In this document: piece by piece, positions 36,110-42,444 of the stretch | Numbering within the stretch: position 1 is the first letter of the stretch | Layout of the letters: each line of letters begins with the position of its first letter | Source of the DNA: Neophaeotheca triangularis | Taxonomy: Eukaryota | Direction: 5' to 3' | NCBI GenBank assembly: GCA_054600435.1 | Contig: BAAIJX010000004.1 | Location: 62,001-126,000 of the forward strand | DNA: 64,000 nt | The notes under the pieces: generated by a model | Database searches by the model: none | What the model was told of the DNA's origin: nothing | The model's input: only the letters and a program-made list of their open reading frames with translations | Translations under genes and position numbers: made by a program

Positions 36110-38422
36110 CTACCACCGATCGTCCTCCTCAGCAACATCCTCACCATAAACCTGCTTCTGCCGCTCCCGTTCCTGCTCAGCGTCAACATCTGCTTCCAAA
36201 TCCATAACAACGTTCCCATCATTCGCGGCCTCGACACCAACCTTACCGACCGTACTTCCCTCCGCTCCGCCGCCAGCACTCGCTTCCACAGCCGGCAGCG
36301 TCCCAGTAAACCACTCAACCTCACACTTCCCAACCCCCTCCAGCACACCCCCTTTCCCACCTTTAAGCGCGAGCAAGAACCTCTCCGCCAAATACCGCTC
36401 CGTGTACCCCACCACGGCCGCGTCTTCGCGCTCCGGGTGCGGCAGCACGGTTCCTTCGTCCAAACCATCGCCGAGGAAGACGAACTGCCGCAGCGCCTCG
36501 GCAGCTGAAGTGTAAGAGTGCTCGGGAGCGGGAAAGATGACGGCCAGAGCTTTCGGCCGGTTGTCGAGACGCTTGACGGCGCCGCCGAAACCTGCGCGGC
36601 CGCCGCGGTAGCTGGGAGCATGGCCGTAGTCGGGAGTGCCGCGGGCTCTGCCTCTGCCGCGACCGCGACCGCGGAAACCGCTCGGGTCGTAGGCCTGGTG
36701 GGAGTGCGTCTGTGGGCTGTTAGGATCTTGGTTTGATGAGGAAGTGTAGAAGGTTGCCGGGTCGAGGCCGGCGGAACTGGCTTCTTGCTCGAGCGCGGCG
36801 AGTTTCTCGCGCAATGCGCGGGTGGATTCGGATTCGTTGGGTTTGGGGGTCGGGATGTCGGAGGTGGTGGTAGCCGGGGCTGGGCTGGCGGAGGCTTTCC
36901 CGCTCTTTTTTGCTAGCATGGCGGCCATCTTCGCTCGCTCTTCATTCATCGCCTTCATTTTGGCGTCGAGTTCTTCTTTTTGCTTGGCTGCGGCTTCGCG
37001 CTTGCTTTGCTGTTCTTCGTGCTTCTTTTGCGCTTCTTCTTGTCGACGAGCCAGTTCTGTAGGGTCAATGGCGGCTTCTTGCGTGTCTTGATAGTTTGAC
37101 ATCTCCGTATCCTCGCCCGCTGCCTGGCCGTTTGTTGGCTTTGTGGCGTCTCTTTCCGGTTTATACCAGTATACTTTGACGAAGCGGTTGTCGAAGACGA
37201 CTTTTGGGCTTTGGTAGGCGGCTTTTGCTTCTTCATAGTCGCTGAATTTCACGATTGCCAGCTTTTTCCACTCTTGCATTGTAACTTCCTCAATCTGTCC
37301 GAATTGGCTGAAGAATTCTCGCACTGCTTCTTCGGAAAACTTGTCCTCCGGTATCTGCTCAACTACAAGCGATGTGATGGAGCGATCTTGGTTCATGCCC
37401 GTAGAGGAAAACTCTGATCTACCGCCACGCCCACGGCCCCTCCCTCTCATCCCACCTCTGCCACGTTCAGAGCGGTTATTCGAGGAGTGCATGTTGACAC
37501 TACCAGAACGATCCGGTTGTGGCCCATTGAAGAAGGCCGCATTCGGGTTGGATGGATCGTACTCGGAGTGGCCATTCGCATCCAGAGGGGTATCATCGTG
37601 GTCGTACTTGCAAGTCGCGCCAAAGGTGCAATATCCCTTCTGATCGTAATCTCTGCATCTCTTGCCCGTCTTGCGAGGAGCATTGAATCCATTGCCCTGG
37701 GGAGGCGCGTTGTAAGCATTGCCATTCTGGAAAGGCGATCCACCCGCACCAGCAGGTGGCATAGGCATTCCCATAGCCTGAAGAGCGGCAAGCATGGCCG
37801 CAGGGTTGTTGGGGTCGAAAGGAGGCATCCCTTGAGGAGGCGTAGGCATGCGAGGCATGTTACCCATCTGCGGCATCCCAGCGGCAGGCCCAGTGGGCGG
37901 CATAAAGTTTTGAAACTGCTGCATTGACTGGTGCTGCGGTTGCTGCGGGACAACTCCGCCACGGCCACCTCGCGCATCGAGCCCACCACCCCTACCACGC
38001 CTAGCCTGCTTCATCGGTCTATTCTCAGCTTGCCCAAACCCTGGCAACTGCTGGCCCGGCACTTGCTGCTGACTCGTCGCATCCTCCTCAAACCCTCTCT
38101 TCACACCCGCACCGGCGCCCATACCTGATGCGGCTGGCGCAACCCCACCCGCACCCGCAGGCTTTGGCACCCAGCCCACCTCAAACTTCCTCTCCCTGAT
38201 AGCAGCAAAAACCTCCTCGACAAAGCCCTCACTCTTCTCCTGTAAGAAATCTTGCAAGCTGTCCACCGCGGTCGGTTTGGCCGCTTCCTCACTCTCGTCA
38301 CTCCCGACCAGCGCTAGAACATAGTCGGCCAGAACATCGCTGTCGGCGTCGCTTATGACTTCGAGGCGTTTGGTGACCCATGTCTTCAGTGCTTCCGTAT
38401 CTGAATCGCCGAGGATCGGCAT
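36110..38422 (-). CDS. RBM26/RBM27-like RNA-binding protein (PWI + CCCH zinc finger + RRM)
   Basis: PWI-like LKTWVTKRLEVISDADSDVLADYVLAL, CCCH CRDYDQKGYCTFGATCKYDH, RRM with FFSQFGQI and VFDNRFVKVYW, RGG tracts. Start MPILG at 38422. Confidence 0.9.
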   Translation of the reverse strand: MPILGDSDTEALKTWVTKRLEVISDADSDVLADYVLALVGSDESEEAAKPTAVDSLQDFLQEKSEGFVEEVFAAIRERKFEVGWVPKPAGAGGVAPAASGMGAGAGVKRGFEEDATSQQQVPGQQLPGFGQAENRPMKQARRGRGGGLDARGGRGGVVPQQPQHQSMQQFQNFMPPTGPAAGMPQMGNMPRMPTPPQGMPPFDPNNPAAMLAALQAMGMPMPPAGAGGSPFQNGNAYNAPPQGNGFNAPRKTGKRCRDYDQKGYCTFGATCKYDHDDTPLDANGHSEYDPSNPNAAFFNGPQPDRSGSVNMHSSNNRSERGRGGMRGRGRGRGGRSEFSSTGMNQDRSITSLVVEQIPEDKFSEEAVREFFSQFGQIEEVTMQEWKKLAIVKFSDYEEAKAAYQSPKVVFDNRFVKVYWYKPERDATKPTNGQAAGEDTEMSNYQDTQEAAIDPTELARRQEEAQKKHEEQQSKREAAAKQKEELDAKMKAMNEERAKMAAMLAKKSGKASASPAPATTTSDIPTPKPNESESTRALREKLAALEQEASSAGLDPATFYTSSSNQDPNSPQTHSHQAYDPSGFRGRGRGRGRARGTPDYGHAPSYRGGRAGFGGAVKRLDNRPKALAVIFPAPEHSYTSAAEALRQFVFLGDGLDEGTVLPHPEREDAAVVGYTERYLAERFLLALKGGKGGVLEGVGKCEVEWFTGTLPAVEASAGGGAEGSTVGKVGVEAANDGNVVMDLEADVDAEQERERQKQVYGEDVAEEDDRW

Positions 38423-39097
38423 GATTGTTCGGCTGTTTGGACGGCGTTTGAAGCTATGGTGAAGGGTACAATATGTTGGCTGTACAAATAGTTGGAAGAG
38501 CTTAGAGGGCGGCACTAGGTGAAGGTCGCGTTTAGTAAGAGCTAACAAAGGGTTGTCGGCTTGGTGGTGGCGGTAAGGATATAGCTACTCGTGGTGGTGA
38601 GGTTGGTATGAATTTTGAACTCGCGCAGTCAAAGGTGTGCGCTGAGGGTTGACTGAGGTAGGTAAAGGTCGCGCGCAAAGAAACGCGATCCCAGCTCGCT
38701 TCATCAGTAAGGTTGAAGCTTGCTGCCAAGACACTGACGTCGGGATTTGCTGAACGTCACTTAGGGTTCAGGTTTGGGTAGGACAATCGTTGCTTTAACA
38801 CACTACGGCGACGGAGCACGTTTGTTCTTTCGAATTTGGAGACGTCGGCTATGACGAGATCATAAATTGGTCCAAGGCTCGTCGTTTTGTGCAAGCGGAA
38901 TGAATGTTCACACTAAACTGTCCGTATTCTGTGTATCTGTGGGTGGGAAATCTAAGCCGAGCCCTTGACCCCTGGCTTTGCAGCAAGCGGAACACGCCGG
39001 ATTTGGCCGAAGAAACCCACTTTTGTCATTCAACGTCTGAGAGCACAATTCAAAAGATTATATTTGAACACACATCAATTCCATCATCCGATCAAGC

Positions 39098-39308
39098 GGT
39101 GAGATGTTAGTAACACTAAAACATCCATTCAACCCGATCAGTAACTGACTCCCACCAGGGCCGAGCGGTCTAAGGCGGTTAGTACACACCAACAATTCGT
39201 CCTCGTTCACCTGAACCAACCTAATCACCTCATTAGCCAGCTTAAGGTGTTCACACATCTGAAGTTCGCTGGTCCGAAAGGGCGTGGGTTCGAATCCCAC
39301 TCTCATCA
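39098..39308 (+). tRNA. tRNA-Leu(AAG) gene in four pieces: two spliceosomal-type introns plus one canonical tRNA intron
   Basis: Exons 39098-39105, 39159-39177, 39237-39247 and 39267-39308 join to GGTGAGATGGCCGAGCGGTCTAAGGCGCCAGCTTAAGGCGCTGGTCCGAAAGGGCGTGGGTTCGAATCCCACTCTCATCA (80 nt). Acceptor GGTGAGA/TCTCATC (one G-U), D stem GCC/GGC, anticodon stem CCAGC/GCTGG around TTAAGGC, long variable arm, T arm GTGGG-TTCGAAT-CCCAC, discriminator A. Confidence 0.88.
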
Positions 39309-39323
39309 ACAGTTGAGACTTGA

Positions 39324-39331
39324 TTTTTTTT
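39324..39331 (+). terminator. RNA polymerase III oligo(T) terminator
   Basis: T8 run starting 16 nt after the tRNA discriminator base. Confidence 0.8.
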
Positions 39332-40207
39332 GCACTTTTCCCCCTCACGTCCTCCTCTATGAGGCAGGGTAGCCTGTAGGTAATAGGGCTTTAGTCTGAG
39401 CTCGGCAGGTTGATGGGTACCGAATTGCATACTCGTTTCATGCTTATCCTATCCTTTTCGTATCTTTTTTCTTCTCTCGTATATTTCTCCAGTCTCCTAG
39501 ATATCGATTCATCGAAATCCCATGGACAATGATACGAGAACCCAAGCCCAGCGTAATATCCGATCTAAGCAGCGTCGTGGCTCCGAAGCCCGTCATCGTC
39601 TTTTCGCCTTCACGCCCGCTAACACCAGTAAAACGCTTCTTTCGGATATCTCAACTCCTTTACAACCCTCGAACCGCAATGGATCAAAGGAATCACAAGC
39701 GGAACGATCATGGTCAATGTTTGAAAGATATTTTTGGCACGAAAGGAACTTGAGACAGGAGACAGCCTCGATGGTTTTTGGGGCAAAGAAAAAAAAAAAA
39801 AACCTTACACAGAGGCGTATTGTAGGAGGTACTGTCGCATTTTAATGTTGGGAAGATTTTTCCCGGGATAAACAAGAACCAGTCGCCCCAGCACACCCAT
39901 GGCACACACTATTCAAGAAACGAAAAGATGAAAGGACACGGCAAAAGCAAAGCCGCAAAACCGACGAGAGAGACGGCAAACCCAGCCCCTGTCAATTGTA
40001 GCAAAGATGGGAGCGGCGACTTCCACTTGATCCATCTATACATCCAAGTAAGTACAAGCGAGTAACCAAACACCACCGCTCTTCCTCCCTCGATGGCTCG
40101 AGAGACCAGCGTAGATGCCCTAGCTCTTTCGCACCAACATGACATCCACAACACTCGGGGCCACTCTCGCTCTCATCTTTCACTCTATCAAGATTCTCTA
40201 CCTTCAT

Positions 40208-42444
40208 CTACATCTTCGCCTTGCCCTCTTGGGTAGTCGGCAGCAGCAAATCCCTGACCTCTCCGGCAGCCTCATCGATGAAGAAACTCATGCGGTCGCA
40301 ACCGAGGTGCTTGCTGATAATGTTGAACTGCAAACTGTTCTCGTTGATCATGTAGGCGATACTGCAAGACGATCCACAACGTTAGCGAACTGTAAACCAA
40401 GCGCGGAATGAAAAGGAAAGAAGAGAAAATCAAACTCACCCCCACCCCTCATCAATGACCTGACTCCATCCATAACCATTGAAATACTCCGAACTCAACT
40501 GACTGGACGAAATGAACCAATTCCCGCTGTATCCAAACGCATCGTCCTTGTAAATTTCCGGAACCTCTTCGCCGCTTCCAATCATCTTCTTCAGCCCGAA
40601 CAAATGCCTGTCCACGCCCTTGCCATCGCTCGCATCGGTAATGTACTTGACGTGAGCGTCCACGGCGGCGCGGAATCGCTGCCGACATTCATCGGGAGAG
40701 ACGTTGGGGTCGGCCATGCCGTCGCAGAAAGCGACCGATTCGTCCGACACGGAGCGGCAGGTTTCGGTGCGGCCTTGTTGGAAACGACGGGTTGCGGCGG
40801 ATTCGTACGTCGGGCGATTCTTACCGTAGAATTTGTGGTAGGCGAGTTGGATCAGCAGCTGCACGTAGGCGTCGGGGGAGCACTTGAATTTCTTGATCAG
40901 GCCTTTGCCGTAACCTTTGTAGGCTTGCACGCGGAGGTCGTGCTCGCCGATGAGTTTGACGTGGTGCGAGGTGGCGGTTGCAATGTCGGTTTGGTTTTCA
41001 GGGGTGAGTTTGAATTGCAGGGGGGTGGGGGAGGGGAGGGTGGAGCGGACGGTCGGGTTGTCGTAGTCGAGCTTGTTTTCATGCATGAGCATGTTGATGT
41101 AGTCGTTGAGACGGTGCGTGGGGGTTCCGTCCATCATGCTGTGCTCGCCCATGAAGCCAGAGGTGCCGTTGTCGTTGACGATGAATTGGAGCGGCTTGTC
41201 GAACCAGCGATTGCTGCCGTCGCCGTGCCAGTATTGGTGTGCGCGCTCTTCGAGGGTGATGGGGGAGGCGTCGTCGAGGCAGACAACAAACGAGGACGAC
41301 TCAATCTCTTTGAGAGTGGTCTCATTGGTAGGAGCGGCGGTAATCAGGCGCTCACGCATTTCTGTCCAGGTGTCGCGGTTTTCGGTCGTCATGATACCGA
41401 CGGCGGGGGATTTCTCTGCTGCCTCGTAGATGCGCTGGAATTGCTGCTCGAGTTCTTTGGTGGTGAGCTGCTTGCCGTCGACTTCGTGCTTGAGCTTGAA
41501 GAACTGGTTCTTGCGGACAACCACAATGTGCGCATTCTCAGCGGCGGGGTATTTGGCAGGGTAGTCTGCGGGAGCGGCGGGGATGCGGCAGGCGTTGAAC
41601 ATCCACTCGTAGCTGCTCATTGCAATGGGGAGCTTCTTCATGTATTCAGGCTCAAGAGTACCCTCGTCGACCTGCTTCTTGAACTCGAGCACGCTGGTTG
41701 TGATGGCCGCGGCCCTCTTGGCTGGCTGCCTCCTCCTCCTGTCATCGCGGTGGCTGTAAAAGTAGCTCACGTACGGTACGACGGGGTCACGGTAGCCCAG
41801 GTATGCTGCGTGGTTCCACCATTCGTAGATCCAGTTCTTCATACCGGGCTCATCCCTACGCGCTTCGAGACGCTTCTGCAATTCATGACCAAAGCTGCCA
41901 GGAGCGATGAAAGCATCGACGGCTTTCTGTGTCTTTGCGTACTCTTCCTTGCTGAGGAGAGGGTGTACGGACTTGAGGTAGCGCTGGGCGGTCTCCTCGA
42001 GAGTGGGGACGGGGAGGGTGGGGAGGGAGTCTTCGTAGCGGAGCATGGGGCCCTTGGAGTGGTCCTCTTTGTAGCCTGAACATTTACTATTAGCTTTGCC
42101 CCATCCGGCAGCGGCGGATTAGAAAGGATGCATACTCCCAGGCAGGCCACTGCTCTTCCTCTGCTGCTGTTGCTGCGTCGGCGCCATCCTTGCAATCTCA
42201 ACCTAAAACGACAACAAGTATCTCAAGTCAGTGACGAGTACGATAAAAGGGCAATGACGATGGATAGAAAGGAAAGAAGCAAGCCGGTCGGTCTCGAGCT
42301 CTACTAGAAAAAAGTCACGATATTACGCACCTTCGGCACACGAGCTCTGGTAGTAGTCAAATACCTCGGCGTAGCAGCGGGCGTGGTGGTGGTGATGCGG
42401 GAGGCTCTGGTGATCAGCGAGGAGCTCGCTCTCGTCAGAAACAT
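40208..42444 (-). CDS. CAT2: Carnitine O-acetyltransferase, mitochondrial/peroxisomal (Cat2/AcuJ-like)
   Basis: Exons 42444-42331, 42202-42136, 42075-40440 and 40361-40208. LPTLPVPTLEET, NRWFDK, catalytic EHSMMDG, TYESAATRRFQQGRTE. R/S/T-rich presequence and C-terminal AKM. Confidence 0.95.

Follow-up and report, generated by a model that had tools for sequence, protein, structure and literature searches.

The window, by which we mean the whole 64,000-nt stretch of DNA that was analyzed, carries on its forward strand a tRNA-Leu(AAG) gene (39098-39308) from which a clean 80-nt cloverleaf is obtained once three inserts are cut out in silico (Table 1). Within the third exon, CCAGC (27-31) occupies 39237-39241 and T32, T33, A34, A35, G36, and G37 occupy 39242-39247, and beyond the third insert C38 (39267) is followed by GCTGG (39-43) at 39268-39272. 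An earlier note on this DNA had described a 19-nt insert between G37 and C38 followed by GCTGG, and both the coordinates and the bases that it gave are exact. Upstream, on the reverse strand, lies a long open frame with CCCH zinc-finger-like and RRM-like segments, which from its translation we take to be RBM26/27-like; this frame is divergent to the tRNA gene, and its 5' end is ~500-650 nt from exon 1. The gene next to the tRNA gene that is covered by RNA contigs from two metatranscriptome runs (X3 and X4) encodes a carnitine acyltransferase.

Table 1. Features in and around the tRNA-Leu(AAG) gene, in window coordinates.
Feature	Position	Strand	Description
Long open frame	36110-38584	-	CCCH zinc-finger-like, RRM-like, presumably RBM26/27-like
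TATA-like stretch	39057-39066	+	within AGATTATATTTG; ~35-40 nt upstream of mature 5' end
Exon 1	39098-39105	+	8 nt; acceptor-stem 5' strand (1-7) and U8
Insert 1	39106-39158	+	53 nt at 8/9; GTTAGT...ACTGAC...CAG; spliceosomal type
Exon 2	39159-39177	+	G9, D stem-loop, G26; contains A-box-like sequence
Insert 2	39178-39236	+	59 nt at 26/27; GTTAGT...CTAAT...TAG; spliceosomal type
Exon 3a	39237-39247	+	anticodon stem 5' strand and loop through G37; anticodon AAG at 39244-39246
Insert 3	39248-39266	+	19 nt, TGTTCACACATCTGAAGTT, at 37/38; canonical-position tRNA intron
Exon 3b	39267-39308	+	C38, anticodon stem 3' strand, 11-nt variable region, T arm, acceptor 3' strand, discriminator A
B box	39285-39295	+	GGTTCGAATCC, in T arm
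T8 run	39324-39331	+	16 nt past discriminator; RNA polymerase III terminator-like
mRNA intron	40362-40439	-	78 nt, in carnitine acyltransferase gene; GTGAGT..GCTAAC..TTGCAG

The tRNA gene becomes visible to standard tools only in its spliced form. ARAGORN called no tRNA in the uncut genomic sequence, Rfam at its gathering score called none anywhere in the window, and at a loose threshold the Rfam tRNA model matched the T arm alone (15.9 bits); a search for further tRNA pieces across the window found none. The inserts were then cut by their coordinates in a script, and ARAGORN was run on each product. Nothing was called when only insert 3 or only insert 2 had been removed, a tRNA with an anticodon-loop intron was called after removal of inserts 1 and 2 (the intron being placed slightly differently, as 21 nt, and the tRNA read as Leu-taa), and a regular 80-nt tRNA-Leu(aag) with the 7-nt loop TTAAGGC was called after removal of all three. 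In the spliced product, the acceptor, D, and anticodon stems (the last being CCAGC/GCTGG) are 7, 3, and 5 bp long, the variable region measures 11 nt, and the T arm is standard; the hallmarks U8, A14, a GG-containing D loop, U33, G37, the T loop GTTCGAATC, and a discriminator A are also present. When both strands of the window (128 kb) were scanned for a 7-mer that can pair with the 3' acceptor strand and has T and then GT after it, the sole hit was 39098, 53 nt ahead of the D arm; with one such acceptor-pairing site in 128 kb, chance does not account for the complete gene. We considered it unlikely that the locus is a dead or dying tRNA copy, a pseudogene that took up the three inserts by insertion and yields no mature tRNA. 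The failure of both ARAGORN and Rfam to call the uncut gene speaks for such a copy, but all 80 exon nucleotides give a flawless cloverleaf and the ends of the inserts coincide exactly with splice-signal motifs.

The 19-nt insert lies one nucleotide 3' of the anticodon, and with it removed a 5-bp stem carries a 7-nt loop that has U33 and a purine at position 37. Being too short and having the ends TG..TT, it is ruled out as a spliceosomal intron, and the sequence supports its assignment as an ordinary canonical-position eukaryotic tRNA intron; taken alone, it is nothing unusual. Introns of this kind are cut by the Sen2/Sen34/Sen15/Sen54 endonuclease (TSEN), and the halves are joined in fungi by Trl1 and Tpt1. 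The claim of a canonical 37/38 intron in the earlier note held up, given that removal of the insert, along with both long inserts, restores the very loop that the note had named as that of the mature tRNA. The note had also proposed that 39241-39250 pairs with 39255-39264 as an anticodon-intron helix. This pairing exists, with eight Watson-Crick pairs, one G-U pair, and one A/G mismatch, but its first base, C31, is needed in the anticodon stem. For 39237-39272, the fold of lowest energy retains the stem 27-31/39-43 and adds six pairs (A35, G36, G37, and i1-i3 with i13-i8), and i14-i19 and C38 stay unpaired, so that the 3' cut site is single-stranded in the usual eukaryotic pre-tRNA layout. When the 19 nt were shuffled, 28% of 500 shuffles folded equally well or better; the helix is therefore within chance, and the case for the intron rests on the restored cloverleaf and not on the helix. 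U32 and G(i17) could form a wobble pair, and the in-register central helix (32:i(-3)) has two of four pairs; the favored fold uses another register. An 18-nt GT..AG segment at 39247-39264 was considered as a mini spliceosomal intron and rejected, since its removal would leave an 8-nt loop. The insert resembles canonical 37/38 introns in its position, its partial pairing with the anticodon, and its single-stranded 3' cut site, and the gene differs from those that carry such introns in also having two inserts that TSEN is not expected to recognize.

Both long inserts begin with GTTAGT, a hexamer present 14 times in 128 kb, and in both an ACTGAC or CTAAT motif sits 13-17 nt before a YAG end (CAG and TAG, respectively). 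Each shows the U2-type combination of a GT(N)AGT start, a CTRAY motif 10-40 nt before the end, a YAG end, and a length above ~40 nt. They are of the same style as the mRNA intron in the local carnitine acyltransferase gene, which is bridged by a marine metatranscriptome contig from run X3 (joint 40361 to 40440). The simplest reading of their sequences is that inserts 1 and 2 are U2-type spliceosomal introns. We weighed against this the possibility that the endonuclease cuts all three inserts, as introns of the tRNA type, at relaxed bulge-helix-bulge (BHB) sites, with the GT..AG ends being coincidental. Some eukaryotes do have multi-intron tRNA genes, with introns outside 37/38 that are removed without the spliceosome, according to part of a review of tRNA introns (PMC4090602). 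We tested five GT..AG inserts for a BHB, two from the window and three from the metagenomic tRNA-Leu genes described below, with 3-nt bulges and a 4-bp central helix. None of the five forms all four central pairs in register (insert 1, 2/4; insert 2, 3/4; L039, 3/4; L118, 1/4; L054, 2/4), and the flanking helices are poor, those of insert 2 being absent. A register shift of up to 2 nt lets some inserts reach four of four, but such shifts amount to 25 registers tried, each with a chance rate of 2%. Moreover, the GTNAGT starts, the branch-like CTRAY found in four of the five distinct inserts (none is evident in L054), the YAG ends (5/5), and the lengths of 51-151 nt are needs of the spliceosome and none of the endonuclease's. 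We regard cleavage of all three inserts by the endonuclease as very improbable.

Three further observations were made on these introns. The GTTAGT starts of both long inserts are the exact complement of the branch consensus CTAAC/CTGAC, and when the fold was constrained, all six positions of the 5' splice site in insert 1 paired with the insert's own ACTGAC. The third intron base is a pyrimidine in four of the five GT..AG inserts (T, T, C, C, and G). The contig that bridges the carnitine acyltransferase intron indicates that a close relative is transcriptionally active in such marine samples.

The DNA of a relative, X2, was compared with the window, and all counts that follow cover the differences listed for it. 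There were 12 differences in 161 nt of the 5' flank, 2 in the 53 nt of insert 1 (two 1-nt indels), 5 in the 59 nt of insert 2 (all substitutions), and 11 in 277 nt of the 3' flank, compared to none in the 80 nt of the exons. Among the listed differences, the contrast between exons and nonexons (7 for inserts 1 and 2 combined, which total 112 nt, and 23 for the two flanks) was significant by Fisher's test (p = 0.008). No listed difference falls in the 19-nt insert, which is too short for this to be informative. The absence of listed exon differences, next to flanks that differ at about 1 in 12 positions, argues against a decaying copy and is consistent with a gene whose spliced product is in use. 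One X2 contig matches the window from 39159 rightwards and for at least 255 nt leftwards is unlike it; the unlike part ends with CTAAC and 8 nt directly before the first matched base, G. This contig is probably from a second Leu-AAG gene copy, to judge by its sequence, with a different first intron that is possibly shifted by one base. In a further organism, B, uninterrupted Leu tRNA contigs (a loose-end consensus of two contigs) have a D arm that runs straight into an anticodon stem starting with CCAG, which is the joint predicted by cutting insert 2. Run X8 gave only ordinary Leu tRNA contigs, which match the 3' half of the gene.

A metagenome scan for the 3'-terminal 11 nt of exon 2 with GTNNGT next to them yielded at least 120 loci. 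The 5' GT of the inserts was imposed by this search pattern, and their YAG ends, their branch motifs, and the restored cloverleaves were not. Among the 120 loci listed, 21 were ordinary tRNAs (20 of them uninterrupted, plus L108), 95 gave no tRNA call, also after trial removal of GT..AG segments, and 4, representing three distinct genes, had a GT..AG insert exactly at 26/27 together with a 37/38 intron. These genes are L039 (Leu-UAA; a 51-nt insert at 26/27 and a 19-nt intron at 37/38), L118 (Leu-UAA; a 52-nt insert with TACTAAC and a 10-nt intron), and L054, which is nearly the same as L094 (Leu-CAA; a 151-nt insert and a 45-nt intron). The lengths of the 37/38 introns were read from the stems, as ARAGORN also calls tRNAs at many wrong lengths. 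The exons of L039 and L118 differ by 1 nt, whereas both introns and the flanks have diverged, and exons that are kept while introns diverge are a signature of selection on the spliced product. This layout, found in three further genes listed with conserved exons and diverged introns, is hard to reconcile with insertions in a pseudogene. An insert at 8/9 was absent from all four of the split metagenome loci listed. L108 is a regular tRNA-Leu(AAG) whose sole intron is canonical and 30 nt long; it is identical to the window gene at 63 of 80 nt, including the whole D loop and variable region, and it follows that the split gene is not alone among Leu-AAG genes in having a 37/38 intron. We considered that, in a fungal-type lineage, the production of leucine tRNA could depend on the spliceosome, given that 26/27 introns occur in three isoacceptors and several species with the 37/38 intron kept, and we would put this at a little under an even chance. 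The same scan returned a family of tRNA-derived sequences (L018, L053, L079, L082, and L085) with a D-arm-like start, a GGGTTCGAATCC-like T arm, and a shared tail with GTTGTGTGTTGTCAGGTAG-like words, none of which is called as a tRNA by ARAGORN; it looks like a tRNA-derived, SINE-like repeat.

The signals around the gene bear on how it might be transcribed. Downstream of all five split genes listed, at 3-16 nt, stands a run of T5-T8; none of these genes has five or more consecutive T internally, and in the window gene no more than two T occur in a row. A terminator downstream with none inside, along with the B box of the window gene, fits transcription by RNA polymerase III, which is most likely the polymerase used, and the TATA-like stretch upstream is a possible TFIIIB/TBP site. 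An A box normally lies at about +8 to +19 of the mature tRNA sequence and places the start shortly before the gene. The A-box-like sequence in exon 2 is separated from exon 1 by the 53 nt of insert 1 and lies ~60 nt downstream of the mature 5' end, and for this reason a standard start directed by the A box would fall inside insert 1 and exon 1 would be lost. The 8-nt first exon of an uncapped transcript is, in addition, an awkward and unusual substrate for the spliceosome. Transcription by RNA polymerase II would ease this point, with a cap and a longer first exon helping the recognition of insert 1, and the nearby 5' end of the divergent protein gene would allow for a shared promoter region. 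In that case, the locus would make a spliced noncoding RNA that releases the tRNA, or a tRNA-like RNA with another role, and its polymerase III features would be vestigial; the T run that follows all five split genes listed and is missing from their interiors is, however, sensible only for polymerase III. In small shares of the metatranscriptome runs X3 and X4, contigs were found only on 39785-41200 and none over the tRNA gene. This result has no bearing on expression; contigs on the neighboring gene and none on the tRNA gene count weakly against polymerase II, and their absence over the gene can also be set, along with an A box that insert 1 has moved off the start site, on the side of a pseudogene. 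The retained terminator and the lack of internal T runs point the other way. We treat a polymerase II origin as a serious alternative, though an unlikely one, about as probable as a dead copy, and prefer transcription by polymerase III.

Taken together, the observed anatomy of the gene, the conservation of its exons, and the recurrence of the pair of 26/27 and 37/38 introns in other tRNA-Leu genes suggest that this is probably a working nuclear tRNA-Leu(AAG) gene of fungal type, with two U2-type introns and one tRNA intron that would be removed by two splicing systems. Polymerase III, perhaps placed by the upstream TATA-like stretch, would make a precursor of ~230 nt, from which the spliceosome would take out inserts 1 and 2 in the nucleus. 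The precursor ends would then be processed, after which the endonuclease would cut out the 19-nt intron and the fungal Trl1/Tpt1 pathway would join the halves. Expression, polymerase, enzymes, and order are the parts of this scheme that we infer. There is precedent for such a substrate in the fungal U6 genes, which are transcribed by polymerase III and carry up to four spliceosomal introns, and the U6 snRNA intron of fission yeast and other fungi is removed by the spliceosome, as reported in part of a review (PMC5855946).

The proposal in the earlier note that two splicing machineries act on one precursor is well supported by the sequence, if the gene is expressed. Two machineries are the simplest reading because a 37/38 intron shares the gene with two long inserts of another kind, and making tRNA-Leu(AAG) from this locus probably needs two unrelated splicing machines. 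The same note held that the long inserts must be removed first, an obligatory order that we consider plausible. Part of a tRNA review describes TSEN54 as using the mature tRNA body as a ruler (PMC10275265), which makes this order reasonable, and the window gene differs from canonical TSEN substrates in having its mature body split at 8/9 and 26/27. Because each long insert falls in a single-stranded linker that joins two helices, the cloverleaf can be drawn with its four helices complete and the inserts still present. Constraining the RNA to the cloverleaf raises its energy above that of the minimum-energy fold by 8.3 kcal/mol in the full precursor, by 4.6 kcal/mol in the precursor with only the 19-nt intron, and by 5.9 kcal/mol in the mature tRNA, and these differences of 2-4 kcal/mol are too small to prove a folding block. 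A second argument comes from compartments. The spliceosome is nuclear. In budding yeast, tRNAs that contain an intron leave the nucleus first, and the tRNA endonuclease then cuts them at the outer membrane of the mitochondria, according to the same review in part (PMC10275265). If the yeast arrangement applied here, an endonuclease on the mitochondrial surface and a nuclear spliceosome would favor the removal of the long inserts first.

In the textbook division of labor, spliceosomal introns belong to transcripts made by polymerase II and to a small number of snRNAs, and the introns that an endonuclease cuts belong to tRNAs. Several known systems come close to the window gene. The U6 snRNA genes of fungi such as S. 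pombe share with it short GT..AG introns with branch sites in the gene of a small structured polymerase III RNA (PMC5855946, in part). U6, however, is positioned in the spliceosome's active site, so that reverse splicing explains its gain of introns, whereas a tRNA has no such proximity. Spliceosomal introns are also present in U1, U2, U5, and rRNA genes, and the list in the available part of that review names snRNA and rRNA, tRNA being absent from it (PMC5855946). Several introns per tRNA gene, on the D-arm side as well as at the canonical position, are described for Cyanidioschyzon merolae, for the nucleomorphs of cryptophytes and chlorarachniophytes, and for Crenarchaeota in parts of two papers (PMC4090602; PMC9602550). 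Those introns are of the BHB type and one endonuclease serves for all of them, whereas the noncanonical inserts of the window gene are without a BHB and carry spliceosomal signals. HAC1/XBP1 mRNA resembles it in that one precursor is handled by both the spliceosome and a pathway of endonuclease plus tRNA ligase, as in nematode xbp-1, which has spliceosomal introns and one IRE1-type intron (PMC12530127, in part); there, an mRNA is cut by IRE1, and here a tRNA would be cut by the tRNA endonuclease.

Searches of full-text literature outside subscription journals brought up no paper that describes introns of the spliceosomal type in tRNA genes. The word spliceosome is absent from the available part of a 2014 review of tRNA introns (PMC4090602), and in that of a 2023 tRNA review it is mentioned once, as a contrast (PMC10275265). 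What appears to be new is the presence of predicted spliceosomal-type introns and a 37/38 intron together in one tRNA gene, of which we found no published description. If our reading is correct, the spliceosome can act on tRNA precursors, and the gene provides a natural substrate for studying how it deals with polymerase III RNAs that are short, uncapped, and highly structured. A built-in test of processing order would also be at hand, because the tRNA endonuclease measures from the folded body. Should the production of leucine tRNA depend on the spliceosome in such a lineage, translation of leucine codons would be tied to spliceosome activity, and each such tRNA would follow a fixed order of nuclear and then cytoplasmic steps. 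It may also be asked, with three leucine isoacceptors using the 26/27 site, if these introns are ancient or were gained there more than once. Given that ARAGORN and Rfam both miss the gene, fungal tRNA sets may be under-counted, and split genes of this kind could explain tRNA genes that are apparently missing.
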